A DNA stretch of 64,000 bases from an uncultured Bacilli bacterium (GTDB lineage: Bacteria > Bacillota_I > Bacilli_A > RFN20 > CAG-449), in NCBI GenBank assembly GCA_947632435.1, contig CANRPC010000001.1:75986-139985 (forward strand). Reading direction: 5' to 3'. The position numbers and the translations under genes are program-made. A model generated the notes under the pieces. The model was given only the letters and a program-made list of their open reading frames with translations, was not told the origin of the DNA and did no database searches. Below, one piece after another: positions 1-55,426 of the stretch (positions are counted from its first letter, which is position 1; each line of letters begins with the position of its first letter).

Positions 1-29
1 AATGGTTAGATGCAATTTCTAAAGAATTT

Positions 30-1298: not shown

Positions 1299-1303
1299 AG
1301 ATT

Positions 1304-3186: not shown

Positions 3187-3206
3187 TAAAAAAGGAGATA
3201 TAAAAT

Positions 3207-4589: not shown

Positions 4590-4606
4590 AAAGGATGTAA
4601 AACAAT

Positions 4607-5986
4607 ATGAAAAAAATATTACTTAATACGCTAATATTTTCTTCGGTTATAGTTGGAAGCATGATGCTTTCATCTTGTAATAATGTTAGAAGATCGGTTT
4701 CCTTAAAAAATGGGGATCATTATTTTATAAATAATTCTTATATTGATTTAAATAATATTCCAGAACAAATTCAATTTGCAATTGAAATTGAAGGAAAAAT
4801 TCAAGATATTTCTGTTGGAACAATTTTAATTAAACCAAAAGATTTTAATTATAGGAAAGGCATTTTAACAATTAATGGTAATGTTTTAAAAGATGAATAT
4901 GGTGAATTAAAAATTTCTTCTGGCGATAATAGATTTGAAATTTTTACAGGGTCAACAATGTATTATCATAGTTGTCTAATGGTCGATAAAGTAATTAAAA
5001 CACCTGAAGATTTCCAAAGTATAAATAACAATCCTTTAGGATCATATATTCTTGGAAATGATATCGATTTTGAAAACTCTAATATTACTAATTTTGAACC
5101 ATTAGGTTATGCCGAAAGTGATTCCCATTATAATCAAGAATTCGGTGGAGTTTTTGATGGTAATGGTTATGCCATAAAAAATTTACAAACACGTTATAGT
5201 TTAGATGGTCCAGAAGATGATAAAGTCGATGGAATAGATCAATATGAAGGTCATTTTGTTTTCCAAGATGATGCTCATAGTGCAGGTACTCAATTTGGTG
5301 TTTTCCAATCAATTTCAAAAAGTGGCATTGTAAGAAATGTTTCATTTAATAATTGTTTTATTTTCGGTAAGACAATTGTTGGTGTAGTTGCTGGTACTAA
5401 TAATGGATTAATCGAAAATGTATTTATCGATAAAAATTGTCAAGCAATAGCAGCAACCCATTTTTATGATGATGATTGTAATGTTGGTACAATTGCAGGC
5501 ATTAATGGTGAAGGAACAATCAAAAATGTCATTTCTATGGGAACATCAAAAATCGTTAAGAATTATATTGATTATGATGATAGTGCTTATGATGATTTAG
5601 CAACGGAAGAAGTTGAAACTAGTCATAATTTCTGGAGTGGCATAAAAAGTGAAGAAAATATGGATTCAAATGGATTAGTTTCAACTGGAGTATATGCAGG
5701 AATTGGAATGTCTTGGGGAGAAGCATATGATTGTGTTGCAATGCAATTTACAAATGCAAGTGTTGCACCTAATCTTTATGCACCATTTGGTCAAACTCAT
5801 TTAGCCATTAATAAGCCATCTAGTGGTGCTGAAAATACAGGATTAATTAGTAATTGTGTAGTCTTAACAGAAGATGAAATGAAAAATGCAAGTACTTACA
5901 CTAAATTTTCATCTGCTATTTGGAATATAAGTGAAGGAACTATTCCAACATTTAAAAATCCATATCCAACTGCTAAATATCATTAA
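4607..5986 (+). CDS. Surface lipoprotein with a GLUG-like domain
   Basis: Signal peptide plus lipobox (LSSC). Motif EFGGVFDGNGYAIKNL plus GVFQS, paralogous to the motif in 3207..4589 and 19967..22265. Confidence 0.45.
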   Translation: MKKILLNTLIFSSVIVGSMMLSSCNNVRRSVSLKNGDHYFINNSYIDLNNIPEQIQFAIEIEGKIQDISVGTILIKPKDFNYRKGILTINGNVLKDEYGELKISSGDNRFEIFTGSTMYYHSCLMVDKVIKTPEDFQSINNNPLGSYILGNDIDFENSNITNFEPLGYAESDSHYNQEFGGVFDGNGYAIKNLQTRYSLDGPEDDKVDGIDQYEGHFVFQDDAHSAGTQFGVFQSISKSGIVRNVSFNNCFIFGKTIVGVVAGTNNGLIENVFIDKNCQAIAATHFYDDDCNVGTIAGINGEGTIKNVISMGTSKIVKNYIDYDDSAYDDLATEEVETSHNFWSGIKSEENMDSNGLVSTGVYAGIGMSWGEAYDCVAMQFTNASVAPNLYAPFGQTHLAINKPSSGAENTGLISNCVVLTEDEMKNASTYTKFSSAIWNISEGTIPTFKNPYPTAKYH

Positions 5987-6017
5987 TTTTATTCAATCTA
6001 ACAAGAGGAGATTTTAT

Positions 6018-9000
6018 ATGGTTAAATATTATTTCTCAGGTGATACTTTTTTCATTGATGATTTTCAAAATGCTAAAACATTTTCATCGTTTTTTCCTGC
6101 TGTAAGTGGAATTGATGGTAAACCAATGTGGACATTTTATTGTTCTAAAGGACAAGCATTATCTTCATTTGGTGTAAATTCAAAATCTACACCAATAATT
6201 CCCTTTGATAGTGCTAATCTTGCATATCAAAATATTGCTTTAAAATCTTTTAGAACTTTTATAAAGTGTAATGATGAATATCTTGAACCATTTTCATCAT
6301 TAGATAACCATTTAACAAGAATGGAAATAGATAAAGCAAAATTATCAATTTCAGAAGAAGAAAAAGATTTTAAAATTAAAATTATTTACTCAAATGTTCC
6401 ACATCGTTGTTACAGTGGTTTAATTAGAAAAGTTAAAATTACTAATACCTCTAATGAAACTAAGCATTTTAAAGTTTTAGATGGTTTACCAATTTTCTTC
6501 CCTCATGGACTTTCAAATTTTGATTATAAAGAATTAGTTTCTTTAATGGCGGCTTATTGTCAAGTTCATGATTTAGAAAAAAAGATGCCATTTGTTAAAT
6601 TTAAAACTTCAACTGCCGATTGTAGCGAAGTAAAAGAAGTTAAAAGTGGAAATGCTTTTGTAAGTGTTGATAAAAATGGGAAGCTATTAGATAATGTCGT
6701 GGACTTAAAACTAGTTTTTGGTGAAGATTTATCTTTAAAAGATGCTCGTAATTTTAGATTAAAAGAAAATATATTAAAAGAAAATCAACAAATTGAAAAC
6801 AAACTTCCATGTGCTTTCTCTTTTAGTGAATTTACATTAGCAAAAGATGAAAGTTATGAATTTGCTTCTATATATGGTAAATTTGACAATCAAGAAACAT
6901 TTTTTCAAGAATTATCAAATATTGATTTAAAAACTATTGATAAAATGATTGATGATAGTGAAAAACTAATTGATGATTTACTTTCACCAATTGAAGTATC
7001 TAGCAATTTACCTTTATTTGATAAATATGCTAAACAATCACTTTTAGATAATAATCTTCGTGGAGGATTCCCTTTAGAATTAGCAAAAGGTGTCCCATAT
7101 TATGTTTATGGTCGTAAACATGGCGATATGGAAAGAGACTATAACTTCTTTAAAATTCGTGATACATATTTTTCATCTGGAGAAGGTAATTTTAGAGATG
7201 TAAATCAAAATCGTCGAAATGACATATATTTTTATCCTTTTGTTAAAGATTATAACATTAAAATATTCTTTGATTTAATTCAAGTCGATGGTCAAAATCC
7301 ATTAAATGTTAGACCACCAAGATTTGTTTTAAATAATGAAGAAATACTAAAAAATATTAAAGATAATGAATTGAAAAATATTTTAAGTAAACCTTATGAA
7401 CCTTCAGATTTATATTCATATTTAAAAGATGTTAAACAAGATTCAGATTTACAAAAAACCTTTGAATATTATATTTCTTTATCTTTACAAGAAGTCGAGG
7501 CAAATTTTGGCGAAGGTTATTGGATTGATCATTGGACATATAATGTAGATTTATTAGAAAATTTTGTAAGTGTCTATCCTGATAAAATTGAAGAATTATT
7601 ATTTAGAGATGATTATTGTTATTTTTATTCGCCTGTTAAAGTAGAACCTCGTAAAGAAAAATACTGCTTACTTAAAGATAATCGCATTCGTCAATATGGG
7701 GCACTTGATTTAAAAAAGTTAAAAAAAGAATGCGAAAAAATGCATTTTGATTTAACAAAAACATCATGGTTAAAAAATAAAAATGGTGAAGTTTATAAAA
7801 CAAGTTTAATTTCAAAAATTGCAAATCTTGCATTAATTAAATTTTCAACCTTAGATTCTAAGCAATTAGGTATTGAAATGGAATGTGAAAAACCAGGTTG
7901 GAATGATGCAATGAATGGCTTACCTGGTTTATTTGCCTCAAGTGTTGGTGAAAGTATTGAATTATTAAGACTTGTTGAATTTTTTATAAAACATAGTAAA
8001 CAATTTGCTAATAAAGAAATTCCTTTCTTAAATGAACAATATCATTTATATCGCGATATTGAAAAATATACAAAACTTCTCAATAAAGGCCTTATAAGTC
8101 AATTTGAATATTGGGATAAAGTTACTACAAGTAGAGAAAATCTTAGAGAAGCTACTCATTTATTTGTAAAAGGTAAAATTGTAAAAGTAAAAATATCTTC
8201 ACTTCTTGTTTTATTTAAACGCATGAAAAAGATGCTTATAAAAGGTATTAAAACTGCTAAAAAAATTGGAGGAGGTATTCTTCCTTCATATCTTATTTAT
8301 GAAGTTAAAGATTATCAAAAAACAGGTTATATTAATCATAATGGATATGAAACTGTTAAAGTTAAAGAATTTGAATTAAAGTTATTACCTTTATTTTTAG
8401 AGGCATCAGCAAGATCTTTCAAAGTTGGTAAAGAAATAACATCAAGAAAAGATTATCAACTTATTAAAAAAACAGATTTATATGATAAAAAAATTCACAT
8501 GTATAAAACATGCGCGGATATTGATGAAGCACCATTTGAAATTGGACGTGTTCACGCTTTTACTAAAGGTTGGTTAGAAAGAGAATGTGTCTTCTTACAT
8601 ATGACATATAAATATATTTTAGGATTATTAAAAGGTGGATACTATAAAGAGTTCTATAATGAAATAAAAGACAATTTCGTATATAATCGTGATCCTTATG
8701 TCTATGGAAGAAATCCAATTGAAAGTTCTTCATTTATTGTCCCTACTTGTAATCCCGATTCATCTTTACATGGTAGAGGTTTCTTTGCTAGATTAACTGG
8801 AGCAAATGCCGAATTTTTAGATATGTATAATACGATGATTTTTGGAACACAATTATTTGTATTTGAAAATAATGAATTAAAATTAAATATGAATCCACTT
8901 CTTGATAAATCATTTTTTAAAGAAGATGGAACATTCACATTTAAATTATTGAATTCAATTAAAGTAACGTATTTAAATCCAAACAAAATAAATGCTTATG

Positions 9001-9116
9001 AAAAAAAGAAATTAACTTATATTATTGATGGAATTACTTATAATGAAGTCAAAGGATCTCTAGCTGAGAAAATACGCGATGGAAGAATTAATTCTTTCAA
9101 AGTTATAATTGAATAG
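6018..9116 (+). CDS. Large intracellular glycoside phosphorylase/hydrolase of the GH94 clan (GH94/GH149/GH161-like). Proposed to be a beta-1,3-gluco-oligosaccharide (laminaribiose/laminarin) phosphorylase.
   Basis: 1032 aa from ATG 6018 (RBS aagaggag at 6003-6010). The ORF-track start at 5931 overlaps the upstream gene. No signal peptide. Motif PGWNDAMNGLPG resembles the catalytic DWNDG(M/L)N region of GH94 phosphorylases. Context: GH16 and GH30 glucanases plus a sugar ABC transporter. Family assignment is inferential. Confidence 0.4.
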   Translation: MVKYYFSGDTFFIDDFQNAKTFSSFFPAVSGIDGKPMWTFYCSKGQALSSFGVNSKSTPIIPFDSANLAYQNIALKSFRTFIKCNDEYLEPFSSLDNHLTRMEIDKAKLSISEEEKDFKIKIIYSNVPHRCYSGLIRKVKITNTSNETKHFKVLDGLPIFFPHGLSNFDYKELVSLMAAYCQVHDLEKKMPFVKFKTSTADCSEVKEVKSGNAFVSVDKNGKLLDNVVDLKLVFGEDLSLKDARNFRLKENILKENQQIENKLPCAFSFSEFTLAKDESYEFASIYGKFDNQETFFQELSNIDLKTIDKMIDDSEKLIDDLLSPIEVSSNLPLFDKYAKQSLLDNNLRGGFPLELAKGVPYYVYGRKHGDMERDYNFFKIRDTYFSSGEGNFRDVNQNRRNDIYFYPFVKDYNIKIFFDLIQVDGQNPLNVRPPRFVLNNEEILKNIKDNELKNILSKPYEPSDLYSYLKDVKQDSDLQKTFEYYISLSLQEVEANFGEGYWIDHWTYNVDLLENFVSVYPDKIEELLFRDDYCYFYSPVKVEPRKEKYCLLKDNRIRQYGALDLKKLKKECEKMHFDLTKTSWLKNKNGEVYKTSLISKIANLALIKFSTLDSKQLGIEMECEKPGWNDAMNGLPGLFASSVGESIELLRLVEFFIKHSKQFANKEIPFLNEQYHLYRDIEKYTKLLNKGLISQFEYWDKVTTSRENLREATHLFVKGKIVKVKISSLLVLFKRMKKMLIKGIKTAKKIGGGILPSYLIYEVKDYQKTGYINHNGYETVKVKEFELKLLPLFLEASARSFKVGKEITSRKDYQLIKKTDLYDKKIHMYKTCADIDEAPFEIGRVHAFTKGWLERECVFLHMTYKYILGLLKGGYYKEFYNEIKDNFVYNRDPYVYGRNPIESSSFIVPTCNPDSSLHGRGFFARLTGANAEFLDMYNTMIFGTQLFVFENNELKLNMNPLLDKSFFKEDGTFTFKLLNSIKVTYLNPNKINAYEKKKLTYIIDGITYNEVKGSLAEKIRDGRINSFKVIIE

Positions 9117-9127
9117 GAGAAAGCAAA

Positions 9128-10555
9128 ATGAAAAAGAGTAGTTTTTACTTAACTTTATGTGTACTTAGTGCTATATCGTGTTTAACAGGATGTAATAATT
9201 CAAATGGTAAAAGTGAAGATGCACCATTGAAAGTTAGAATTTCAGAAACTTGCCCTAAGCTTGTTCAATGTGGCAATACTATTAATCTTCAAGCTGATGT
9301 TTTAAATGATAAAAGCAATAAAGGTGTAACTTGGACTGGAGATGATAATTTAGTTGCCACGATTAGTGATGATGGTAAATTAACAGGTCTTTCTCAAGGT
9401 ACAGTTAAAGCAACCGCGAAAAGTATTACTGATCCAACTCAAACGGCAGAAGTAGTTGTCAATGTAAATTATAATACTTTGATTTCTGTTGAAATAACGA
9501 CAAAACCTTCCTCAATTAAAGTTGGAGAAACCATTAAATTAAGTGCATCAATAAATGGTGATCCCACAAATAGTGGTATTGGTTGGATGGTTAATAATGA
9601 GGCTTTAGCTACGATTGATCAAGAGGGAAATCTCACTGCGATTCAAATGGGACTTGAAGGAAAAATAATTGTTAATGCCTTTTCGAAAATTAATCCTTCA
9701 GCTACAAGTTCAAATTTAACAATTGAAATCAAACCATCAAGTAATGGTGAAGAAGCCATTGAAGATTTAGTTGAAAAAGTTGGCGATTATCGTTTAATCT
9801 TTAAAGATGATTTTTCATCTAATAACCTTAATAAAAATAACTGGGAAGTTATGATTGGTGATGGTAAAAAATATGGAGTTACCGATTGGGGTAATGATGA
9901 AAAGCAATTTTATCGCGAAGATAATATTAAATTTAAAGATCAAGAAATGTATATTGTTGCTAAAAAAGAGACAGAACGTAATGATACAAGAGGAAAAACT
10001 TATACCAGTGGACGAATTCGTTCTGAAAATTTAGTTTCTTATACATATGGTAGAATTGAAGCTCGTATTGCTTGCCCATTTGGTGATGGTCTATGGCCAG
10101 CATTTTGGATGTTACCTGATTCAAAAGATAATCCTTATGGAGGTTGGCCAAACAGTGGTGAAATCGATATTATGGAAGTAAGAGGTCGTCAACATTATTC
10201 AATGTTTGGAACAATCCATATTTCCGATGAATATGGAATTCATGATACACGTGCTTCTGATTATTTATTTCCAGAAGGTCAAGATATATCTAATTATCAT
10301 AAATACGCGGTTGAATGGGAAGAAGGATCTATTAAATGGTTTTGTGATGATGTACTTTATCTAACAATTGATAAAGATCATAATCCTTGGACATTAAAAG
10401 AAGGTACAGGAGTTTTCCCTTCACCATTTGATAAAAAATTTCATATTTTAATTAACATGGCAGTAGGAGGAAATTTTGATGGCAATCGTTTACCATTAGA
10501 TAAAGAACTACCAGCTTATATGAAAATTGATTATGTAAAATGGTTTAAAAAGTAG
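9128..10555 (+). CDS. GH16 endo-beta-1,3(4)-glucanase (laminarinase) lipoprotein with two N-terminal Big_2 domains
   Basis: Signal peptide plus lipobox (LTGC). Two Ig-like segments. The C-terminal domain has the GH16 catalytic motif SGEIDIMEV (ExDxxE) and WPAFWMLP. Confidence 0.75.
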   Translation: MKKSSFYLTLCVLSAISCLTGCNNSNGKSEDAPLKVRISETCPKLVQCGNTINLQADVLNDKSNKGVTWTGDDNLVATISDDGKLTGLSQGTVKATAKSITDPTQTAEVVVNVNYNTLISVEITTKPSSIKVGETIKLSASINGDPTNSGIGWMVNNEALATIDQEGNLTAIQMGLEGKIIVNAFSKINPSATSSNLTIEIKPSSNGEEAIEDLVEKVGDYRLIFKDDFSSNNLNKNNWEVMIGDGKKYGVTDWGNDEKQFYREDNIKFKDQEMYIVAKKETERNDTRGKTYTSGRIRSENLVSYTYGRIEARIACPFGDGLWPAFWMLPDSKDNPYGGWPNSGEIDIMEVRGRQHYSMFGTIHISDEYGIHDTRASDYLFPEGQDISNYHKYAVEWEEGSIKWFCDDVLYLTIDKDHNPWTLKEGTGVFPSPFDKKFHILINMAVGGNFDGNRLPLDKELPAYMKIDYVKWFKK

Positions 10556-10564
10556 GAGGAAACT

Positions 10565-11968
10565 ATGGGATTATTTAATAGCAAATCTTTAGAAGAAAAA
10601 GAAGAATTAAAGCGTAAAGAAGAACAAGAAAAATTACTTGAAAAGCAACGTGATCGTATTTATAAAGAAACAATTAATTATCAAAAAGAACATCAAAAAG
10701 AATTAAAAGTTGCTCCGCAAGATAGTTTTATTTCTTTACAACATATTAACAAGATTTATGGAAATAGAGTTCAAGCAGTTTTTGATTTTAATCTTGAAAT
10801 TAAAGAACATGAATTCGTAGTACTTGTTGGCCCTTCAGGATGTGGTAAATCGACAACTTTAAGAATGGTCGCAGGACTTGAAGCTATCACTTCTGGTGAT
10901 TTATATATTGATAAAGTTTATTCTAATGATTTAGAGCCTAAAGATCGTAATTTATCAATGGTATTCCAAAATTATGCTCTTTATCCTCATATGTCAGTAT
11001 ATAATAATATGGCATTTGGTTTAAAAATGCGTAAGTTACCAAAAAATGAAATTGATGAAAAAGTTCATCGTGTAGCAAAAATCCTTCAACTAGAAGATTA
11101 TTTAGATCGTAAACCAAAAGCATTATCAGGTGGTCAATGTCAAAGAGTGGCTTTAGGTAGAGCAATTGTTCGCGATACAAAATTATTCTTAATGGATGAG
11201 CCTTTATCAAATCTTGATGCTAAATTAAGAGTGCAAATGAGAAGTGAAATTGTCAATTTACATGAAACATTAGGTTCAACCACAATTTATGTTACTCACG
11301 ATCAAACAGAAGCAATGACAATGGCAACAAGAATTGTCGTTATGAATAAAGGACGTATTCAACAAGTTGGTACGCCTAAAGAAGTTTATAATCATCCTAG
11401 CAATATTTTTGTGGCCACATTTATTGGTTCTCCAGCGATGAATATATTATCCGCGACTTATGATAAAGGAAAAGTTATTTTAAAAAACGGATTTGAAATT
11501 CAATTGCTTGAAGAACAAATAAAATTACATGATGAATTTTATAAAAATGAATATGATTCTCTTATGAAAAGAAAAGATGAACTTCTTCATAATGAAGAAA
11601 CATTAAGTGAAGAAGAAAAAATTCTCAATAAACAAGAAATTGAAAAAATTGAAAAACATTTAGAAACGATTAAAGAATATCGACAAAGTAATAACCATCC
11701 AATTTATTTTGGAGTTCGTCCAGAAAATATTACCGAAGAAGGTTTGTCAACTAATGCGACAAAACTATCTACTCCGCTTGAAATTGAAGTATTTACTGCT
11801 GAATTATTAGGGCAAGAATATTATATTCATGCTAATATTAAAGATGAAAGACTTATTTCCAAGATTTCCGCGATTAGAGATATTTCCAATCATGAAAAGA
11901 TGAAATTAGTCTTTGATTTAGAAAAGATTCATCTTTTTGATATGATGACACAAAAATATATGGCATGA
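10565..11968 (+). CDS. msmK: Sugar ABC transporter ATP-binding protein (MsmK/MalK family) with an N-terminal coiled-coil extension and an insertion in the C-terminal regulatory domain
   Basis: Walker A (GPSGCGKST), Q-loop, signature (LSGGQCQRV), Walker B (LFLMDEP), H-loop (VTHDQ). About 65 extra charged residues at the N-terminus and a ~60-aa charged heptad-like insertion in the TOBE-like C-terminal domain. 467 aa, versus about 370 for typical MalK. Confidence 0.8.
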
Positions 11969-12459
11969 GTTACAATTTATTAGATGATAAATATATTCAA
12001 GATTTAAAAAAGAAAATTACTAATTATCGTTTAAGTATAATTTTCTTATTGCTACTTGGAATATTAATAACGTTTTTGATTTTTTTCTTTCAAACTAGAA
12101 AGACAATGACGATTTTCATATGGCTTGGAACATTATCAATAAGTATTATTTTAATTACCATTTCATTTATTGTTTTTACTTTATATGAACCAAAACAAAA
12201 GGTTTTACAAAAACTTAATAAAGCAAAAAAAAATTCACCTATTAAATATGATTTTTTGCTTACTAATTATTATGAAAATTATGTTACATATGATGGCTTT
12301 CATGCTAAAAAAATAATGGTAAGAAATAATGATAGTGAAATAGATTTAACATATTTTTTAAATGCTGAAGACGCTATTAAATTAGAAATCGGAAAACATT
12401 ATGAAATGGAAGTTGTAGATCGTCTTATCCTTTTCATAAAGGAGAAACAAGATGAATGA
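11965..12459 (+). CDS. Hypothetical small membrane protein (2 TM)
   Basis: 164-aa ORF overlapping the msmK stop. Two hydrophobic helices. No recognisable motif. Confidence 0.3.
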
Positions 12460-13096
12460 ACTTACAAAACGTAAAATAAAACATTATATTGAATATAATT
12501 GGATTATCATTATATTAATTTTTATTATAACTTATGTTTTTTTCTTCTATACGATATCAAATATTGATGCTTATAAAAGTTATGAACAATTAAATTTTTT
12601 TATTGTTGCGCGAGCTTTAAAGGATGAAGATTTAAAAAACGATTTAATGAATCAAGATAAACGAATTCTTAAATATAATTGGTATTTATATCCTCCTGAA
12701 TTAGATAATTTATATGTCCTTTATCAAGCATTTGGTGAAAACGCTGATATATTATTATTTAGTAAAAGTGATTTAGAAGATTTATCTTCGACAATTAAAG
12801 GAACATTTTTACAAATTGAAGGTGAATTTAAAAACTCATTAATGGAAGGTGTTAAAGAATTAGAAACATTTCAATATGAAAATAAAGATTATGGATTAAA
12901 AATATTTGATTGCAATAATGAAGATTATAATAATAAATATAATTTTTCAGCTTTTTTAGATTTTGCAAATAATGATGATTATTATTTAGTTTTTGCCAAA
13001 AATAGTAAAAAGTTTTGTGAATGTGGAAATAATTCTAATGATATGGCTCTAGTTGCTGCGAATACTATTTTAAGGAGATATGCCTATGAAAGTTAA
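12452..13096 (+). CDS. Hypothetical protein with an N-terminal TM anchor
   Basis: 214-aa ORF overlapping its neighbours (translational coupling). One N-terminal hydrophobic helix. Confidence 0.3.
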   Translation: MNELTKRKIKHYIEYNWIIIILIFIITYVFFFYTISNIDAYKSYEQLNFFIVARALKDEDLKNDLMNQDKRILKYNWYLYPPELDNLYVLYQAFGENADILLFSKSDLEDLSSTIKGTFLQIEGEFKNSLMEGVKELETFQYENKDYGLKIFDCNNEDYNNKYNFSAFLDFANNDDYYLVFAKNSKKFCECGNNSNDMALVAANTILRRYAYES

Positions 13097-13898
13097 ATAT
13101 AATAGTAATTTGCCACGTACACGTTTTGAACAAATAATTGATGTTCTACATTATCATCTTTTTGAAATAATTATTGCAAGTATCTATACTTTTTTATTTT
13201 CTCTTCCTGCATTTTTATGGATAATATTTACTTCTTCTACTTCAATTTTTCAAGGAGAATATTTATTAAATGTCATCTTGATTTATGGAGTATTAGCAAT
13301 TTTAATTGGAGTAATGGGATTAGGATATGCTGGAGGTTTATATTTTTTTAAACGCTTACTATTTAATGAAGGGGTAAATATAAATAAAGATTATATTATT
13401 GGGATAAAGAAAAATGGAAAAAATTTATTTATTATCTTTTTGTTACTTGGATTAAGTTATTTATTATTACATACTTCTATATCCATGATTAATAATTTAA
13501 ACTTAGAAATAAATTTAAAAATAATTATGATAGGTATATCATATGCTTTATTTTTTATTATCATGATAATTATCTTATTTATGGCAACTCAGACAATATT
13601 ATACCAAGCATCATTTAAGCAATTATTATTAAATGGAATTTTATTTTGCTTTGGATATTTATATAAAAATATTTTTATTTTATTAATCTCTTGTTTACCA
13701 TTTATATTTTTTGAATTTTCTCTGATTGATATTTTAAAGTGGCTTAGTGTTTTAATATCGATGGGATTTTATTTTGGATTTTCACAAGTTGTACTTACTT
13801 CATTTTCATTTCATGTATTTGATTTAACAATTAACAAAAAACAATTTAAGGATTATTTAAGGAAAGGATTAGCAAAAAATGAAACAGATAACCTCTAA
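13080..13898 (+). CDS. Polytopic membrane protein, possibly DUF624/YesL-like (a family often encoded beside sugar ABC transporters)
   Basis: 272 aa with 5-6 TM helices. Position within a carbohydrate-utilisation operon. Family assignment is weak. Confidence 0.3.
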   Translation: MPMKVKYNSNLPRTRFEQIIDVLHYHLFEIIIASIYTFLFSLPAFLWIIFTSSTSIFQGEYLLNVILIYGVLAILIGVMGLGYAGGLYFFKRLLFNEGVNINKDYIIGIKKNGKNLFIIFLLLGLSYLLLHTSISMINNLNLEINLKIIMIGISYALFFIIMIIILFMATQTILYQASFKQLLLNGILFCFGYLYKNIFILLISCLPFIFFEFSLIDILKWLSVLISMGFYFGFSQVVLTSFSFHVFDLTINKKQFKDYLRKGLAKNETDNL

Positions 13899-15180
13899 AT
13901 TTAATGATTATTTTAAAGAATATAAACTAAAAAGTAGTGAGGAAACTCCACTTATTAAAGTTGATGAAACAGTATTTTTTCAAACACATTTAGGATTTGG
14001 TGGAGCTTTTACCGATGCTGCATGTTCGATTTTTTTAATGTTAGATGAAAAGCAAAAAGACGAAGTTATAAAAGCATATTTTTCTTTAGAAGGACTTAAT
14101 TATAACTTAGGAAGAATGACAATTGGATCTTGTGATTTTTCACGCTTTGAATACGATTATATTAAAGATTATAATGGTGAAGATTTTGCTTTAAATCATG
14201 ATAAAGAATATATTTTTGAATTTTTAAAAAGAGCAAATAAAGAAAATAAATTAACACTTATGGCTTCTTCTTGGTCAGCACCAAAAATGTATAAAACAAA
14301 TTTTGATAAATGTCATGGTGGTTATTTAAAAAAAGAATGCTATTCTTTATATGCAAAATATATGGTTAATTACATTAAACATATGTCTAAAGAAGGCTTT
14401 GATATCACATATTTAACAATTCAAAATGAACCAGAAGCAGTCCAAACATGGGAATCTTGTATTTTTACTCCTCAAGAAGAATTTGCTCTTGCAAAATGTA
14501 TTTATAAGGAGTTAAAAACTTATTCTTTAGATACAAAATTACTTCTTTGGGATCATAATCGTGATTCAATTGTAAATAGAGTTAAAGGTTATTATGAAGA
14601 TAAAGATGCCGAGGAAATAATTTATGGTTTTGCTTATCATTGGTATGATAATGGTTTTTATGATAATTTAACTATTGTTCATAATATGTGCCCTAATAAA
14701 CATCTTTTCTTCACTGAGGGATGTATTGAATTATTAAATTTGAATAAAGATGATCCAAAAAGTGCTTCAGGAACAATGCAAAATGCCTTACGTTATGCCA
14801 AAAATTATATTATGGATAGTTTGAACTATTCAGAAGCTTTTATTGATTGGAATTTACTTTTAAATGAACATGGTGGTCCAAATCATGTTGGTAATTATTG
14901 TGAAGCTTTAATAATGTTTGATAAAGACTTAAATAAATTGATATATAATCCTTCATATTATGTTGTTAAACATTTTGCTCACTTTATAAAAAAAGGCGCT
15001 AAAAGAATTAAGATTGAAAATGAAAGTGATATTCTTGCTACATCATATTTAAATCCTAATAATGAAGTAGTGGTTATTTTGTCAAATGAAAAAGAAGCAA
15101 CTTCTTTAACTCTTGAAATTAAAAATCAGAAGGTTTTGGTGGAATTACCTGCATATTCAATTACGACAATTATCTGCTAA
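13879..15180 (+). CDS. GH30 glycoside hydrolase (glucosylceramidase / endo-beta-1,6-glucanase-like), cytoplasmic
   Basis: The N-terminal region FQTHLGFGGAFTDAA is characteristic of GH30. The TIQNEPE region is consistent with a (beta/alpha)8 GH-A fold. No signal peptide. Confidence 0.65.
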   Translation: MKQITSKFNDYFKEYKLKSSEETPLIKVDETVFFQTHLGFGGAFTDAACSIFLMLDEKQKDEVIKAYFSLEGLNYNLGRMTIGSCDFSRFEYDYIKDYNGEDFALNHDKEYIFEFLKRANKENKLTLMASSWSAPKMYKTNFDKCHGGYLKKECYSLYAKYMVNYIKHMSKEGFDITYLTIQNEPEAVQTWESCIFTPQEEFALAKCIYKELKTYSLDTKLLLWDHNRDSIVNRVKGYYEDKDAEEIIYGFAYHWYDNGFYDNLTIVHNMCPNKHLFFTEGCIELLNLNKDDPKSASGTMQNALRYAKNYIMDSLNYSEAFIDWNLLLNEHGGPNHVGNYCEALIMFDKDLNKLIYNPSYYVVKHFAHFIKKGAKRIKIENESDILATSYLNPNNEVVVILSNEKEATSLTLEIKNQKVLVELPAYSITTIIC

Positions 15181-15206
15181 CTAATATTAAAAATGGAGAA
15201 TTATAC

Positions 15207-16625
15207 ATGGAAAAACCCAAGATTATAAAAATATTACCAATAAGTTTATTTTGTTCTTTGTTATTATCTTGTAATATTAATGTTACTTCAAAAATAACTT
15301 CATCTTCTAAAGAAACTTATAATGAAGTTAGTACATCAAAAGATGATTCTCAAATATCAAGTGAAACTTCTTCTTGTGAATCAACAACTTCAACCTCGAA
15401 CTCTTTAAGTTTTAATAATGAAGAAGAATTATTAATAAATAATGATTTTAATAGTTTATCTAGTTGGCAACTTATTGAAAGTCATGGATGTATTATAAAA
15501 GAAAAAAGTCATGGTAATTCTGAATTAGTTTTAGATGTCAATAATAGTTCTGCGATTGAAACTTGGTCTGCTCAATTAATTCAAAATTCTATTCCTTTGA
15601 AATATGGAAAAGAATATAAAGTTGAATTTATAATTAAAAGTTCTATTGATCGACCATTTAATTTTGTTCTTCAATCCATGGATTATTCTAAATACTTAAT
15701 TAATGAAATCATTGAATTGAAAGCAAATCAAGAGTATCATTTTTTTAAAATTGTTACTTGTAAAGTAGAAACATCTTATCTTTATGGTTTCTTATTAGGA
15801 AAAATTAATAACATTACAAATAATCAACATGAAATAACTATTAAAAATGTATCTTTAATTGGTGAAAAAAATAAACAAGAAACTGAAGGTTTAGATGGTA
15901 CAACTTCAATTCCACCTAGTGAAAGTCATTCAAGAAAACTACTTTGGAGTGATGAATTTAATGAAGAAGAAGTTGATAAAACAAAATGGACTTTTGAAAT
16001 TGGAAATGGTGCAGGTGGATGGGGAAATAACGAATTACAATACTATACAGATCGTAAGGAAAATGTCAAAGTTAGTAATGGTTCTTTAAAAATTATTGCT
16101 TTAAATGATCGTTATTTGAACTATAATTATTCTTCAACACGTATAATTTCTAAAGATAAATTTGAATTTCATTATGGATATGTTGAAGCTCGTATAGCTT
16201 TACCTTCTTTAGTTGGTATTTGGCCAGCATTTTGGATGCTAGGGGCAAATATTGATGAAGTTAGTTGGCCTAAATGTGGTGAAATAGATATTATGGAAGC
16301 AATTAATGATGAAAGTAAAGTATATTCAACGCTTCATTATAATGAAAATAATCATGTTTCAAAAGGTAATAATGGAAAAATGATTGTTGATAGAACTGAT
16401 TATCATATTTATGGTATGGAATGGCAAGAAGACATAATGAAATTTTATTTAGATGATGTCAATATATTTGAATTTGCTATTTCTTCAAATAATGGAACAA
16501 GTGCATTCCAAAAAGATTTCTTCTTTATTTTTAATGTTGCTGTAGGTGGTAATTGGCCTGGATTTAATATAGGAACAGCATTTCCTCAGACGATGAGTGT
16601 TGATTATCTAAGAGTTTATCAATAA
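15207..16625 (+). CDS. GH16 beta-glucanase lipoprotein with a Ser/Thr-rich linker and an N-terminal putative carbohydrate-binding region
   Basis: Signal peptide plus lipobox (LLSC). S/T-rich linker. C-terminal GH16 motif CGEIDIMEA and WPAFWMLG. Confidence 0.7.
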   Translation: MEKPKIIKILPISLFCSLLLSCNINVTSKITSSSKETYNEVSTSKDDSQISSETSSCESTTSTSNSLSFNNEEELLINNDFNSLSSWQLIESHGCIIKEKSHGNSELVLDVNNSSAIETWSAQLIQNSIPLKYGKEYKVEFIIKSSIDRPFNFVLQSMDYSKYLINEIIELKANQEYHFFKIVTCKVETSYLYGFLLGKINNITNNQHEITIKNVSLIGEKNKQETEGLDGTTSIPPSESHSRKLLWSDEFNEEEVDKTKWTFEIGNGAGGWGNNELQYYTDRKENVKVSNGSLKIIALNDRYLNYNYSSTRIISKDKFEFHYGYVEARIALPSLVGIWPAFWMLGANIDEVSWPKCGEIDIMEAINDESKVYSTLHYNENNHVSKGNNGKMIVDRTDYHIYGMEWQEDIMKFYLDDVNIFEFAISSNNGTSAFQKDFFFIFNVAVGGNWPGFNIGTAFPQTMSVDYLRVYQ

Positions 16626-16666
16626 AAATATTTTGATAATTGATACATTTTAAATTCAATTATCTA

Positions 16667-16716
16667 GAAATCGATTTCCAACAAACATTGAAAATGAAAG
16701 CGGTTTCATTTATAAT
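16667..16716 (+). promoter_or_regulatory. Promoter of the surface-protein gene. It comprises a perfect 12-bp palindrome GAAATCGATTTC (16667-16678), a -35-like TTGAAA (16688-16693), a cre-like site TGAAAGCGGTTTCA (16695-16708) in the spacer, and a -10 TATAAT (16711-16716).
   Basis: Read directly. cre consensus WTGNAANCGNWNNCW. The same architecture recurs at 19890-19939 upstream of the paralogous gene. Confidence 0.5.
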
Positions 16717-16742
16717 ATAAAAGATGAAAGGAATGAAAATTA

Positions 16743-18764
16743 ATGAAAACTAAAAATAAATCAAAATTATTAATTCTTGCAGCATTAACCTTAGTTAGTT
16801 CTTCAGCTGTAAGTTTAAAATCCTATGTTTTTCCACAAGAAAATATCATAGTAAAAGCTAAAGAAGTTTCGATAAATATTGATGCTTCTCAAACTAAAAT
16901 TGAAGGTGCGGGAGTTATAATATTTTTAAGTGATAAACCAAATATTACAGTCGATAATCTTAAAGTCACTATTAAAAGCTTTGAATCCACACAATTTGAA
17001 AACTATAAAGACACAATTCTTTCTAAAGGCATAGAAAATCCTGAATATAATCCTGAAAATGGACGTTTTTATGGCACCATTTCTAATGGTTTCCCTAATG
17101 GTTCTGATGTTAAAATTCTTATTAATGTTTCTTATGAACTAAATGGTGATACTTATTCTAAAGATCTTTTATTTGAAGGAAATAAATATAATCCAAATTA
17201 TGGTTTAAGTGCTTTAAATGCTCCTATGAATGCAAAAATTATTAATAACGTGTTAACTTTTGATGAAGTTAGTAATGCCACAGGATATCATATTGAATAT
17301 CGTAAAGAGAATAAAGTTGATAAAGTCTATGAACAAGATGTTCAAAATGGTGAAACTTTAAATCCGATTATTGCTCAAGGAACATATTATGTATTTATTA
17401 AAGCATTAGGTGATGGTGAAACTTATGGTGATTCAGAATATATTGAAGTAGATGGAACTTATATTGCTCAAGAAATTGAAGCACTTCCTATTCAAATTGA
17501 TGCCTCTTTAACTAAAATTGAAGGTGCTGGTGTTGAAATATATTTTGCTGAAATGCCTGATATTTCACTTTCTGATATTAATATAACAATACTAGATTTT
17601 GAATCAACGCAATTTGCTAACTACAAAGATTCAATTATGAATAATGGATTTAATAAAGTTGATTATAATCCTTCAACAGGACGTTTTTTTGGCACGATTG
17701 CTAATGGTTTTCCTAATGATTCTGATGTTGTAATAACATTTAGAATTATGTATTCATATAATGAATCTTTATATATGCAGGATTTAGTATTTGTTAGTAA
17801 TGTATATAAAGCAAATTATGGTTCATTAATTACTTTAGATAGTCCAACAAATGCTAGAGTTGAAGGTAATAAAATTTTCTTTGATGAAGTAGCTAATGCA
17901 AGTTCTTATCATATTCAATATCATAAAGAAAGTGATGATTCAGTTGTCTTTGAAAGTGATATAACTTCTGGTTCCGAATTAGAAAGTAGATTAGATGCTG
18001 GTTCTTATAAAATATATATTAAAGCGGTCGGAGATGAAGAAAACTATGCTGATTCAATATATGTTGAAGCATCTAATATTTATGTAGTTAGTGAAAAAGA
18101 ATTACCAACTGTTGGAGAACCAATTGCAATTGATGAAGAGCAAACGAAAATAACAGGCGCGGCAGTTGAAATATATTTAAAAGATAAACCAAATATTCCT
18201 TCTATTGCTATTCAAGCTAAACTTGTTTATTTTGATTCTAAAGAAGGAGATCCAAATAATCTTCTTGAATCACAATTCTTAAGTAAAGAATATAATCAAG
18301 AAAATGGGAGATTATTCTTAACTTTAGCAAATGGTTATGATGAATCATTGACACCAAAACATATCATTAAGATTTCTTATGAATTAAACGGAAAAACTTA
18401 TTTACAAGAATTACAATTTGTTAAAAATCAATATTGTACACTTGGCTTTACCTATGCTTTTGCCGAACAATGGAAACTTGATGAATCAGAAGTTAGATAT
18501 ATTGGAAAAGTGTATTTAGGTGATAAAACACTTGATGATTTAACAAAGAAATATTCCAAAATTAAATTCAAAATTGAAACAAAATATAATGGCGAAGATA
18601 AAATTGTGGAATTAGATACTAAATATGTTATGAAATCTATTAATGCTGGATTTAATGAAGAATTAACCGCAGAAGATGGTTGGTATTTCTGCTTAGTTAA
18701 TGTCAAAGTAGCAAGTGGAACAACAATTAGTAAAAATGCAGTAGTTACTGTTACAATAGAATAG
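16743..18764 (+). CDS. Secreted/surface protein with three ~200-aa internal repeats and a conserved C-terminal domain shared with 19967..22265
   Basis: N-terminal signal peptide. Repeat units begin IDASQTKIEGAGV / IDASLTKIEGAGV / IDEEQTKITGAAV, with about 620-bp nucleotide periodicity (16870, 17490, 18120). The C-terminus RYIGKVYLGDK...AEDGWYFC is paralogous to the end of the 20238 ORF. Confidence 0.5.
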   Translation: MKTKNKSKLLILAALTLVSSSAVSLKSYVFPQENIIVKAKEVSINIDASQTKIEGAGVIIFLSDKPNITVDNLKVTIKSFESTQFENYKDTILSKGIENPEYNPENGRFYGTISNGFPNGSDVKILINVSYELNGDTYSKDLLFEGNKYNPNYGLSALNAPMNAKIINNVLTFDEVSNATGYHIEYRKENKVDKVYEQDVQNGETLNPIIAQGTYYVFIKALGDGETYGDSEYIEVDGTYIAQEIEALPIQIDASLTKIEGAGVEIYFAEMPDISLSDINITILDFESTQFANYKDSIMNNGFNKVDYNPSTGRFFGTIANGFPNDSDVVITFRIMYSYNESLYMQDLVFVSNVYKANYGSLITLDSPTNARVEGNKIFFDEVANASSYHIQYHKESDDSVVFESDITSGSELESRLDAGSYKIYIKAVGDEENYADSIYVEASNIYVVSEKELPTVGEPIAIDEEQTKITGAAVEIYLKDKPNIPSIAIQAKLVYFDSKEGDPNNLLESQFLSKEYNQENGRLFLTLANGYDESLTPKHIIKISYELNGKTYLQELQFVKNQYCTLGFTYAFAEQWKLDESEVRYIGKVYLGDKTLDDLTKKYSKIKFKIETKYNGEDKIVELDTKYVMKSINAGFNEELTAEDGWYFCLVNVKVASGTTISKNAVVTVTIE

Positions 18765-18774
18765 GAGCAAAAAA

Positions 18775-19092
18775 ATGAAAAAGATTAAAAAAAGTGTTTT
18801 ATTAATTCTCAGCTTATGTGGATTAGTATTAGTTGGCTGTACATCTAAAACAAGTTCTTCTTCAAGTAATAAAGAACAAAGTTCATCTTTAGTTTCAGAA
18901 ACTACCTCAGAAGATTCTTTATCAACAGAAGAAGTTAATACAACAAGTCAATTAACTCCAACAAGTGAAAATAAAACTACTAAATCCGAGACAACCACAA
19001 GTAGTAAAGAGCAGACATCATCTAAAGAAGGCGGGTTTCAGCAAACTAGTGATAATTTAAGTGAGCAATGGGGTTCATTAATACCATATTAA
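18775..19092 (+). CDS. Small Ser/Thr-rich lipoprotein
   Basis: Signal peptide plus lipobox (LVGC). The low-complexity S/T/E-rich remainder is typical of a surface linker protein. Confidence 0.35.
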   Translation: MKKIKKSVLLILSLCGLVLVGCTSKTSSSSSNKEQSSSLVSETTSEDSLSTEEVNTTSQLTPTSENKTTKSETTTSSKEQTSSKEGGFQQTSDNLSEQWGSLIPY

Positions 19093-19101
19093 TATTTATA
19101 A

Positions 19102-19124
19102 CGGAGATTAGATATCTCCGTTTT
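19102..19124 (+). terminator. Rho-independent terminator
   Basis: Perfect hairpin CGGAGAT-tag-ATCTCCG followed by TTTTCTTT. Confidence 0.7.
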
Positions 19125-19142
19125 CTTTAGGAGAAAATTTAA

Positions 19143-19865
19143 ATGAAACTAATATTTATTCGCCATGGGGATCCCGATTATGAAAATAACACCTTAACAG
19201 AACAAGGATTTAAAGAAATAGCCTCTTTAGCGGATTATTATAAAGAATTAAATTTTAAAAAAGCATATTGTTCATCTTTAAATAGAGCTAAATTAACCGC
19301 AAAAGCTTTTTTAAAACCACATAATAAAAAAGCAATAATTTGTAATTGGCTAGATGAATTTGCTTTTAAAGTTAAAGTTCCTTATTCTAAAGAAACAGTT
19401 TTAAATATGGACTTTTTACCAAGTTTTTTTACAACCCAAGATGATTTTTATAATAATGATTGTTATTTAGATAATGAAGTAATGCGTTCAGCAAATATAA
19501 AAGAACATTATTATGAAGTAGTAAATAAATTTGATGAACTACTTGTTAAATATGGTTATATAAGAGAAGGTAAATTTTATAAAGTAAAAAAAGCAAATAA
19601 AGACACATTAATTTTTATTTGTCATTTTGGCATTATGAGTGTATTAATGTCGCACCTTATGGGAATACCATTTGTTTTATTAACTCAATCATTTATTTGC
19701 CCACCAAGTGGAGTAACAACTTTAGTTACTGAAGAAAGAGAAAAAGGAATAGCTCAATTTAGATGTTTAGAATATGGCAATATAGATCATTTAAAAAAAG
19801 CAAATATTAAGCCTAGTTTTATGGGTAGATTTTGTGAAATATATGAATCTAATGAACGACATTAA
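19143..19865 (+). CDS. Histidine phosphatase superfamily protein (phosphoglycerate mutase-like)
   Basis: N-terminal LIFIRHGD (the RHG catalytic motif), about 240 aa. Confidence 0.6.
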   Translation: MKLIFIRHGDPDYENNTLTEQGFKEIASLADYYKELNFKKAYCSSLNRAKLTAKAFLKPHNKKAIICNWLDEFAFKVKVPYSKETVLNMDFLPSFFTTQDDFYNNDCYLDNEVMRSANIKEHYYEVVNKFDELLVKYGYIREGKFYKVKKANKDTLIFICHFGIMSVLMSHLMGIPFVLLTQSFICPPSGVTTLVTEEREKGIAQFRCLEYGNIDHLKKANIKPSFMGRFCEIYESNERH

Positions 19866-19889
19866 TATGCTCAAAATAGATCAAGCTTA

Positions 19890-19939
19890 GAAATCGATTT
19901 CTATAAAATCTTGCAAATAAAACCGCTTTCATGTATAAT
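19890..19939 (+). promoter_or_regulatory. Promoter of the phase-variable surface-protein gene. It comprises the palindrome GAAATCGATTTC (19890-19901), a -35 TTGCAA (19911-19916), a cre-like site AAAACCGCTTTCA (19918-19931), and an extended -10 TGTTATAAT (19932-19939).
   Basis: Read directly. It is paralogous to 16667-16716. Confidence 0.5.
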
Positions 19940-19966
19940 TTATTTGAAAAGGAGAGAGTAAAAAAA

Positions 19967-22265
19967 ATGAAAAAATTTAAAAACTCAAAACTTATTGCTC
20001 TTACTGCTTTTATGCTATTTGGAGCAAATTATGCTGCACAAGCAAACTATAATAATAAAATTGTAACAAAAGCTGAAGCTAATGATGTAGTTACAATTTC
20101 AAACAAAGAAGATTTATTAAAGTTCTTTGATGGAAGTGCAAATTCATGTAATAAGGATGCTATTCTTACAGAAGATATAGATTTAGAAGGAAAAGTATTT
20201 GTTAATGTAGCTATGGCAGGCGAATACAACGGAAATTTTGATGGGGGGGGGGCATACAATTTCTAATTTTATTTCCAAAGGTCCTGGTTTATTTAATATA
20301 ATTGGTACTAATGGTAAAGTATCTCAATTAAATTTATCTGTTGATAATGGTGGTAAAATTGGTGGTGGAACTCTTGCTTATCAAAATAATGGTACAATTG
20401 AAAATTGTTTTGTACATTTAATTTTATCTGAAAGTTGTAATACATATGGAGCTATTTGTTTAGTAAATAGTGGATCAATTATTAACTGTAAAACTTATAT
20501 TGAATTTTTAGATAGTGCTACTTCATCAAATAACATTTATCCAATTGCAAAAAATGGAACATTTACTGATTGTAGTTATAACTCTAATCAAACAAATGGA
20601 TTTGCAAATTTTGAAAAAGTAACTCGTGATGAATCTATTACACCAAATCAAAATATGCCAACATTAGATCAACTTGAAACACCAACAGATGTTAAAGTTG
20701 AAAATAATGTTCTTTCATTTAATCCTGTTGATAATGCAACAAATTATGAAGTTACTTACTTTGATGAAACTGGAAGTAATAAAAAAACAGAAAAAATTTC
20801 ATCAACTACTTATACTTTAACTGATGACTCACTCTTTCCTGGAACATACACAATAAAAGTTAGAGCCTTAGGCGATAATAAAACATATGCTAATTCAGAA
20901 TATGCTATTGCCACAGGTACTTTTGTTGTTGAAGAAAAAGAAGGTTTACCAATTGAGATAAATAATGCACAAGAAACTTCAATTAATGGAGATCAAATAT
21001 TTATTTATACTTCAAATTTAGCTAATGCAAAACAGGAAGATATAAGCATTAGAATAGTTAATATTGAAACAAATAATCATAATAATGATGAATTTTATCA
21101 ATCTTTAATTAATTCATCAGCTAAAATTCAAGAATTTAATGTTTATTCTGATGCAAGTCAAAGAATTTATGGAATATTGAGTAAAGGTTTACCAGAAGAT
21201 AATGAACGAATAATTACGGTTGAATTAAGTGCAGTAGTAGGTAAACAATTCTATAAACAAAAATTAATTTTTGTAGGAAAAGAATATAAACCTAATTATG
21301 GTAAAATAGAAGAATTATCTGCTCCAACAAATGTTTCATTAGTTGATAATACTTTAAAATTTGATGAAGTAGAACATGCTATTGGATATCATGTTCAATA
21401 TCGTAATGTTAATGGTGGTGTAGAAGCTGAACATGATATAGAACCTAATGGTGAATTAACAGCCAAATTAGAAGAAGGAACATATACATTATTTTTAAGA
21501 GCTCTTGGTGATGAAATAGATTATACATCATCTTCATATGTTGAAGTTTCTGAAAAATTTATTGTTGCTGGAAAAGAATTACCTGAACTTGGTGCTCCAA
21601 TAAAGATAAAAGAAGAAGGAACAAAAATTTCGGGTGATCAAGTATTTATTAGATTTGAAGATGCTCCAGATATTACAAAAGAAGATTTCACTATAAAAAT
21701 TATTGATTGTGTATCTGCAAGCGGAAATGGAGTTGCTGATGTTATTAAAAAACAAACTCTTAAAAAAGTAAGTTATTCAAATGGTGAATTATATTGCACA
21801 ATGGGTGCAGGTATTCCTGATGAAACTGATTTAGTTACAACAATTAGAGTTTCATATGAAAAAGATAATGTCGTTTATTTACAAGAATTAGTATTTGATG
21901 GATTAAAATATGATTCTGAAAGAGCTGAAGATTGTAATTTAGGATATGCATATCCATATGGCACCCAAATGAGTCAAAATAATACAAAGATTCGTTATAT
22001 TGGTAAAGTATATGTTGGTGCTAAAGCAGTTGTAGATTTATCAAGTAAATATGCAAATATTAAATTTAAAATTGCTGCAAAAATCAAAGGTGAAGAAAAG
22101 TGGACTGAATTAACCACTAATATGATTATGAAATCATTAAATGCTGGATTTGGTGAACAAGTTACTGCAGAAGATGGATGGTACTATTGTGCGGTTGTAA
22201 TAAATAATTTGCCTACAGGTGAAAACGCTTTTGAGCCTCTATCTTTCACTGTGACATTAGAATAA
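19967..22265 (+). CDS. Large surface protein (signal peptide, GLUG-like motif, repeat region, conserved C-terminal domain). It is split into two ORFs (to 20266, and 20238 onward) by a +1 frameshift inside a G10 homopolymer. This is probably a phase-variable gene currently in the OFF state.
   Basis: ATG 19967 with RBS aaaggagag. Signal peptide MKKFKNSKLIALTAFMLFGANYAAQA. ORF1 ends ...GNFDGGGAYNF* and ORF2 continues GGGHTISNF. With 9 or 12 G the reading is NFDGGGHTISNF, which matches the FDGnGhtIsN GLUG-like motif of the paralogs at 3207 and 4607. Confidence 0.6.
20243..20252 (+). repeat. Poly-G homopolymeric tract (G10) inside the surface-protein gene. It is a candidate slipped-strand phase-variation switch.
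   Basis: Ten consecutive G in a genome of roughly 28% GC. The tract sits exactly at the frameshift joining the two ORFs. Confidence 0.8.
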
Positions 22266-22419: not shown

Positions 22420-22452
22420 TTATTAAGTTTCTTAATTTAATTAAATTTTATA

Positions 22453-22482
22453 AACGGGGATGAATAATCCTCGTTTTGTTTT
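22453..22482 (+). terminator. Rho-independent terminator
   Basis: Stem AACGGGGA / TCCTCGTT (one G-U pair) with a 7-nt loop, followed by a T-rich tail. Confidence 0.5.
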
Positions 22483-23484: not shown

Positions 23485-23681
23485 TTTTTGTATAAGTTTA
23501 AAGCTTATAATTTTTAACACAATAATTTAATATTAATTTGATTTTAACATTTATTTTTTTTAATAATTTTTCACAAAAATAAATTAATTTTGTTTGTTTT
23601 CATATCAAACGGAACACTTTATTGACAAATTATTTATATATTAGTATATTATAAATGAATCAAATATTTAGGGGTGCAAAA

Positions 23682-31045: not shown

Positions 31046-31086
31046 GGAGCGCATTCCTCCTAAATGAATGCAAAGGAGGAAAAAAT

Positions 31087-54703: not shown

Positions 54704-54715
54704 AGGAGTTAAAAT

Positions 54716-55402: not shown

Positions 55403-55426
55403 GTTCTTCTCAAAATAAGTTTTGAG

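Follow-up and report, generated by a model that had tools for sequence, protein, structure and literature searches.

A two-box promoter module with candidate LacI-family operators at two paralogous genes of a beta-glucan locus

What controls a pair of paralogous genes that close a long carbohydrate gene string, and do their promoters answer to one regulator or to two? We examined this question in a 64,000-nucleotide (nt) stretch of contig CANRPC010000001.1 from an uncultured Bacilli bacterium (hereafter the window), in which a gene for a secreted protein begins at ATG 16743 (gene 1, promoter P1) and its paralog at ATG 19967 (gene 2, promoter P2). An initial annotation had described a palindrome, a cre-like site and a TATAAT hexamer in the same order and spacing upstream of both genes; the coordinates match, and the two-box module on both promoters is a real, confirmed observation. 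We call the upstream palindrome box 1 and the site between the promoter hexamers box 2, and distinguish two classes of 14-mer by their outermost positions: class R, RGAAANCGNTTTCY (R...Y), and class T, TGAAANCGNTTTCA (T...A), the latter of the catabolite-responsive element (cre) type. The promoter elements are these:

16666–16679: box 1 of P1, AGAAATCGATTTCC, class R, a CG-centred palindrome whose centre lies about 50 nt upstream of the predicted transcription start; proposed operator
16688–16693, + strand: -35 hexamer of P1, TTGAAA, from the promoter scan with TATAAT and a 17-nt spacer
16695–16708: box 2 of P1, TGAAAGCGGTTTCA, class T, a cre-type candidate operator inside the -35/-10 spacer
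16711–16716, + strand: -10 hexamer of P1, TATAAT
19889–19902: box 1 of P2, AGAAATCGATTTCT, class R, within TAGAAATCGATTTCTA
19911–19916, + strand: -35 hexamer of P2, TTGCAA
19918–19931: box 2 of P2, TAAAACCGCTTTCA, cre-type, at the same spacer position as in P1 and a near reverse complement of the P1 site
19934–19939, + strand: -10 hexamer of P2, TATAAT

The layout common to P1 and P2 runs from the 12-mer GAAATCGATTTC across 9 nt to the -35 hexamer, then through a 17-nt spacer to TATAAT. Apart from its copies at 16667–16678 and 19890–19901, GAAATCGATTTC has no exact match within the window; allowing one mismatch gives three matches against 0.32 expected, a count reached in none of 100 shuffles. 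A promoter consensus scan scored P1 at 11/12 and P2 at 10/12, among the best promoter-like sites of the region, and in both promoters the cre-type 14-mer begins at spacer base 2. The box centres lie 70 and 41 nt 5' of the start codon in P1 and 71 and 42 nt 5' of it in P2. Aligned without gaps, the two promoters are identical at 14/14 positions of box 1, 5/6 of the -35, 13/17 of the spacer and 6/6 of the -10, but at only 8/38 positions of the upstream flank and 4/9 of the linker from box 1 to the -35. Similarity is thus confined to the boxes and hexamers while the flanks stay at background, which argues for selection on discrete elements rather than recent copying. The operators that comparative genomics has catalogued for local LacI-family repressors of carbohydrate loci are even palindromes of 14–20 bp with a central CG (PMC4052901); the P2 site is a 16-bp perfect palindrome, TAGAAATCGATTTCTA, and the 14-mers are CG-centred.

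We then compared both boxes with the sites of CcpA. In Firmicutes, for which Bacillus subtilis is the model, CcpA exerts catabolite control through cre sites of consensus TGWAANCGNTNWCA or WTGNAANCGNWNNCW. Box 2 of P1 (TGAAAGCGGTTTCA) matches TGWAANCGNTNWCA with 0 mismatches and box 2 of P2 (TAAAACCGCTTTCA) with 1, and the two are the sole intergenic cre matches in the window, which holds about 2.4 kb of intergenic DNA in total. The near reverse-complement relation between them, noted in the initial annotation, was confirmed. Membership among CcpA cre sites holds at the level of sequence, which is insufficient to establish it; more generally, a perfect cre match at a promoter does not by itself identify CcpA. 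Box 1 fails TGWAANCGNTNWCA at both outer positions, being without the T1 and A14 typical of cre. The boxes are not two unrelated motifs: both fit a common core, GAAANCGNTTTC, and differ mainly at their outermost positions. Within the window this core occurs seven times at up to one mismatch (2.19 expected), with the four box sites as the best four, and the class R 14-mer occurs twice with 0 expected. Across the window and close relatives, 21 of 21 perfect sites are intergenic (one of them, annotated as coding, precedes a likely true start codon), although intergenic DNA makes up only 4–11% of the sequence.

The setting of the two genes, missed by the initial annotation, is a beta-glucan utilisation locus. 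Positions 1–16625 of the window hold a single long co-directional gene string that ends in the two paralogs. Its first part encodes an ABC sugar-binding protein (SBP; cut by the window start, 477 amino acids (aa) in full), two permeases and one or more Big_2 proteins; its middle a 459-aa protein of unknown function, a 1061-aa protein distantly like GH149 beta-1,3-glucan phosphorylase, a GH16 enzyme and a MalK-type ATPase; and its end three small membrane proteins (164, 214 and 272 aa), a GH30 enzyme and a GH16 enzyme with a CBM4 module. This content of transporter and glycoside hydrolase (GH) genes marks the paralogs as the tail of a beta-1,3/1,6-glucan utilisation locus. Searching the 64 kb for a LacI-family regulator found none, the best E value being 1.2 by tblastn with the regulator of the relative L006, so such a regulator must be encoded elsewhere in the genome. 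As for the host (about 26% GC), positions 53960–56203 carry a gene for a spoIIGA-like protease and, after it, two genes of the sigma-70 family placed where sigE and sigG usually stand, which shows the host to be a spore former.

To see what accompanies the two site classes elsewhere, we turned to the loci of relatives (given L numbers), which cover little beyond the beta-glucan locus; the more distant LacI orthologs among them (L017–L021) came from a metagenome scan, and the names attached to LacI homologs are those of Acholeplasmatales, Bacilli and Erysipelotrichales metagenome-assembled genomes (MAGs). The promoter of the closest ortholog (L002, 52%) reads GAAATCGGTTTA, 11 nt, TTGCAA, a spacer with GAAACCGATTTC, and TAAAAT; its two boxes, at 5922–5967, are exact 12-bp inverted copies of each other (AGAAATCGGTTT / AAACCGATTTCT), which is why the region folds strongly (-21.9 kcal/mol, z = -6.2) into a hairpin spanning the -35 hexamer, unlike the window promoters. 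In L006, L013/L014 and L015/L016, a LacI-family gene stands between the GH30 gene and the gene for the paralog-family protein, directly upstream of the latter. This regulator is not CcpA: it scores 97.7 bits against TIGR01481, whose cutoff is 442. Just 3' of the LacI gene, L006, L013 and L015 carry the class R site RGAAA[T/C]CGGTTTC and, 33–34 bp on, TGAAACCGGTTTCA over the -35/spacer of a TGnTATAAT promoter, the latter identical in all three, N positions included. The 12-mer recurs two to three times in every promoter region of these three beta-glucan loci. In divergent GH16/SBP regions the sites follow the order R, T, R, at L013 5931–6071 (66/61 bp), L015 9098–9240 (68/61 bp) and L017 3136–3281 (66/66 bp), a centre-to-centre spacing of about six helical turns, with an outer site in each of the two 5' untranslated regions (UTRs) and the middle site 5' of both -35 hexamers.

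The association extends to more distant loci. L017 encodes a LacI ortholog at 60%. In L018 (LacI 54%, GC 50%), whose locus holds GH81 and GH30, AGAAATCGGTTTCT is placed 7 nt 5' of the -35 in the regulator's own promoter and GGAAACCGATTTCC lies over the -35/spacer of a Big_2 protein gene, and in L019–L021 (LacI 36–39%) RGAAAACGATTTCC occurs at the regulator's own and neighbouring promoters. Overall, the 9 ortholog loci (84 kb) contain 13 class R sites, spread over 8 of them, and the 74 distant-paralog loci (696 kb) contain 3, in 2 of them. The class is linked to the LacI ortholog group in GH16/GH30/GH81 loci across GC contents of 26–50%. The motif is kept at orthologous promoters, and its presence co-varies with the regulator. 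LacI orthologs outside the low-GC clade are accompanied by class R only (7/7 sites; class T 0/7), and the R...Y flanks of box 1 and T...A flanks of box 2 are kept apart at P1, P2, L006, L013, L015 and L017. The L001 ortholog has a cre-type site, TGTAAGCGATTACA, at the transcription start and TGAAAGCGATTACA nearby, with no class R site; among more distant family members, L003/L004 (P0005) have no such sites, and the region of L005 (P0007) runs to its contig end. No LacI gene was found in the stretches searched of L002, L001 and L011.

Because class R tracks the LacI orthologs of beta-glucan loci, box 1 can be read as the operator of that regulator group, and we consider it probable from the motif's distribution that box 1 is the operator of a locus-specific beta-glucan LacI regulator. 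The suggestion in the initial annotation that the upstream palindrome is a LacI-family operator is thereby well supported, class R co-occurring with orthologous LacI genes in relatives. That boxes 1 and 2 are both functional LacI-family operators is very probable. For the binder of box 2, CcpA comes close to an even chance, the same local repressor is a serious possibility, and another paralog is unlikely. Evidence for CcpA is the perfect to near-perfect cre match, the core-promoter position, the low-GC spore-forming host, the conserved separation of T...A from R...Y flanks and the lack of class T beside the LacI orthologs outside the low-GC clade.

The explanation that we favour as a whole, a local LacI-family repressor at box 1 together with CcpA at box 2, has in our judgement an even chance of being right. 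Under this model, each paralog would be driven by a near-consensus sigma-A-type promoter with two LacI-family operators. Box 1 (AGAAATCGATTTCY), 9 nt upstream of the -35, would be bound by a sugar-responsive repressor dedicated to the beta-1,3/1,6-glucan locus and encoded inside the locus in relatives but presumably outside the 64-kb window in this organism. Box 2 would serve as a cre bound by CcpA with HPr-Ser-P, a dimer in the spacer excluding RNA polymerase. Promoter firing would then need both the release of the local repressor by an oligosaccharide derived from beta-glucan and the lack of any preferred sugar. That the proteins bind and repress, which effector acts and which protein occupies box 2 are parts of this model that we infer. 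Given its place between -35 and -10, any protein bound at box 2 should block RNA polymerase; the earlier proposal of repression from the core promoter therefore fits, the spacer being a repressing position whichever protein binds there.

The kind of system is well known: a locus-specific LacI-family repressor plus a cre-type site at a carbohydrate promoter. Box 2 resembles CcpA/cre control in its 0 and 1 mismatches and in lying within the core promoter, where cre sites repress, in a low-GC spore-forming host; box 1 departs from it in being without the outer T/A, and the sequence class is also used by non-CcpA LacI repressors. As with the catalogued local LacI repressors and the LacI-type regulators of Gram-positive polysaccharide utilisation loci, the site in relatives co-localises with a LacI gene in an ABC transporter/GH16/GH30/GH81 locus, the gene's own promoter included (L018), with several sites per locus; unlike them, this window has no regulator gene in the locus and has one site upstream of the -35.

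Several observations weigh against assigning box 1 to a local repressor and box 2 to CcpA. A cognate LacI-family gene in or beside the locus is present in L006, L013/L014, L015/L016 and L017–L021 and missing from the window, which likewise has no ccpA, ptsH or hprK, and a repressor site acting alone would not usually lie upstream of the -35, where box 1 is. The class T sequence does not imply CcpA: TGAAANCGNTTTCA adjoins eight distant LacI paralogs on contigs of 36–72% GC, and TGAAACCGGTTTCA, the box 2 sequence of L006, L013 and L015, is identical to the published operator of Pseudomonas PtxS, a 2-ketogluconate-responsive LacI-family protein that represses from a site near the -10 (PMC5902321). 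PtxS belongs to an unrelated organism and pathway and serves here only to show that the 14-mer is not CcpA-specific. Similarly, cre-like CG-centred sites at carbohydrate-active enzyme (CAZyme) genes of Clostridium cellulolyticum have been assigned to the CcpA-like LacI paralogs LfpC1-4 rather than to CcpA (PMC3656788), the same ambiguity as here, although there, too, the assignments are predicted, and both motifs and loci are different. In addition, the L002 spacer site is class R and a class R site overlaps the -35/spacer in L018, suggesting that the local regulator can itself occupy the box 2 position, and a single protein binding cooperatively would be in keeping with the regular R-T-R spacing of the relatives' divergent promoter regions. 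The flank dichotomy has perhaps four independent observations behind it, since promoters of orthologs cannot be counted as separate samples. The initial annotation had read box 2 as a cre-like site for CcpA, implying catabolite repression; its fit to the cre consensus stands, and the assignment to CcpA is weakened by class T elsewhere, by PtxS and by L002.

The alternative that survives best, which we regard as possible though tentative, dispenses with CcpA: the beta-glucan LacI repressor would bind both boxes, possibly cooperatively, box 1 serving as a high-affinity auxiliary and box 2 as the site of occlusion, with substrate induction as the only control. The core GAAANCGNTTTC common to both boxes speaks for it, as do the class R sites at both positions of L002, in perfect 12-bp inverted repeat, and over the -35/spacer of L018; the use of class T as a common operator of local LacI paralogs; the identity of TGAAACCGGTTTCA in L006, L013 and L015, directly 3' of the LacI gene; and the R-T-R triplets about six helical turns apart. 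However, the outer difference between R...Y and T...A is systematic and conserved where the surrounding DNA has diverged, the orthologs outside the low-GC clade carry class R only, at all seven sites, and the 29-bp centre-to-centre distance in the window puts two dimers about a quarter turn out of phase.

Much less credible is a reading of both boxes as CcpA cre sites, giving catabolite control only and no locus-specific regulator in this organism. Box 1 lies just 1–2 mismatches from the loose consensus WTGNAANCGNWNNCW, neither the window nor the searched parts of L002, L001 and L011 hold a LacI gene, and the L001 ortholog has classic cre-type sites with no class R; yet class R, without the T1/A14 typical of cre, tracks a non-CcpA LacI ortholog across lineages, including an organism of 50% GC, and sits at the promoter of that very gene. 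Least credible of all is the idea that the shared elements are not protein sites but leftovers of a duplicated promoter or a DNA or RNA hairpin (for example, a terminator of the upstream gene), for, while the genes are paralogous and their promoters may share ancestry, and boxes 1 and 2 can pair, as in the strongly folding L002 region, the flanks at 8/38 against boxes at 14/14 and 13/17 indicate selection, folding of the window regions does not stand out from that of shuffled sequence (z = -1.0 and -0.3), no T-run lies 3' of the boxes, a terminator scan calls none there, and the motif occurs singly at other promoters of relatives. A recent promoter duplication or gene conversion was rejected on the same low flank identity; an intrinsic terminator or structured RNA was rejected for the window on the folding scores, the lack of a terminator call and a search of Rfam, which gave no matches.

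A bolder extension of the two-protein model strikes us as improbable. Here the local LacI repressor and CcpA, paralogs whose near-identical operator cores differ at the outermost base pair, would bind side by side and cooperate in a fixed multi-operator architecture, with one site near -50 and the second in the core promoter or 5' UTR, and with the R-T-R triplet at about six helical turns in relatives, and poly-G switching, described below, would act on one of the secreted proteins. If true, cell-surface glycan-capture proteins would be under three layers of control, by substrate, catabolite state and stochastic phase.

When 185,579 reference genomes were scanned with a DNA pattern for the complete module, from box 1 through the -35 to box 2, two hits came up, one in a Treponema MAG, where a hairpin precedes a tRNA gene, and one in a Christensenellaceae MAG, inside a regulator-like open reading frame (ORF); both were judged chance matches. 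By this pattern search, the module is confined to the present uncultured lineage. Apart from the PtxS operator, the site sequences were not found in published work, and the LacI regulator group, its motif RGAAANCGNTTTCY and the protein family of the paralogs appear to be undescribed. RGAAANCGNTTTCY thus offers a testable operator motif and a candidate regulon for an uncharacterised LacI-family group associated with beta-1,3/1,6-glucan (laminarin- or yeast-glucan-type) loci of uncultured low-GC gut-type bacteria. The general understanding of sugar regulation is unchanged by these findings.

Two side observations concern the relatives' loci. The order of three small membrane protein genes and then GH30 is conserved in L006, L015, L018 and L019. 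The more distant L009 (P0014) has pairs of a shifted motif variant, AGAAAACCGATTTTCT, and TGTAAGCG-type sites at 7730–7798, 13021–13061 and 14486–14527, at the promoters of a gene for a family member, of one for an unrelated 683-aa lipoprotein and of an operon encoding a membrane protein, MoxR, DUF58 and BatA, with no glycoside hydrolase nearby; its regulon seems to differ from the beta-glucan one.

Downstream of the two promoters, the transcribed features are these:

16743–18764, + strand: gene 1, encoding a 673-aa secreted protein with a signal peptide and Ig/Fn3-like beta-sandwich repeats
18775–19092, + strand: small lipoprotein gene, 105 aa, lipobox LVGC, Ser/Thr-rich, probably co-transcribed with gene 1
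19100–19122, + strand: terminator-like hairpin that would end the P1 transcription unit
19967–22265, + strand: gene 2, the gene 1 paralog with an extra N-terminal domain of about 230 aa, split into 19967–20266 and 20238–22265 by a frameshift
20243–20252, + strand: G10 homopolymer in gene 2 that shifts the frame; candidate slipped-strand phase-variation tract
22452–22476, + strand: terminator-like hairpin 3' of gene 2

The paralogy claimed for the two genes is borne out by 37% identity over 535 aa (E 1e-107) between their proteins. The gene 1 protein has no family match in Pfam or NCBIfam. Its AlphaFold model is an all-beta chain with a mean predicted local distance difference test (pLDDT) score of 79.4, for which the best PDB matches in a structure search were strings of Fn3/Ig domains and the S-layer proteins Sap and SbsC. 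As these are only generic Ig/Fn3 chains and S-layer folds, no specific function can be read from the structure. The earlier label of surface protein agrees with the signal peptide and the predicted Ig/Fn3-like chain, and less well with the lack of an anchor motif in the window proteins; surface or secreted proteins belonging to the glucan locus is a fair description. The 105-aa lipoprotein may tether the large protein, which has no anchor of its own, to the membrane, and L001 and L002 also have small ORFs at this point. The 673-aa protein has few homologs: a search of 5.8 billion sequences gave 15, every one of them from a metagenome. They sit in similar beta-glucan loci and in several cases are lipoproteins with extra modules; a protein-pattern scan of reference genomes gave no relatives. 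The tie between this rare, unannotated Ig/Fn3-repeat family of secreted proteins or lipoproteins and a glucan regulon suggests that the family takes part in capturing glucan.

The poly-G tracts in gene 2 and in the nearby BREX pglX gene are the most unusual features of the neighbourhood and the only runs of six or more G or C in the window. Gene 2 is broken in frame by its G10 run, a frameshift that the initial annotation missed: at G10 the reading frame stops at 99 aa, and G9 or G12 restores an ORF of 765–766 aa. The tract consists of three consecutive GGG codons, and since GGG makes up only 4.3% of Gly codons, such runs are unlikely to be neutral. Barring an assembly error, the G10 tract looks like a slipped-strand switch for the phase variation of a secreted protein. 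The second tract, G11 at 30299–30309, ends the ORF of the BREX methyltransferase (Eco57I/N6_Mtase domains; ORFs 28464–30314, 30437–31045 and 31015–31818) within a cluster that includes BrxA at 23655, BrxB at 24287, BrxC at 24892, PglZ at 33857 and BrxL at 36412. With G9 or G12 the pglX ORF reaches just 859–860 aa, and a second break lies near 31040, so pglX appears to be phase-variable or decayed. Between the pglX fragments and pglZ, at 31836–32894, lie a RhuM-family gene (E 1e-106) and an unannotated 311-aa ORF.

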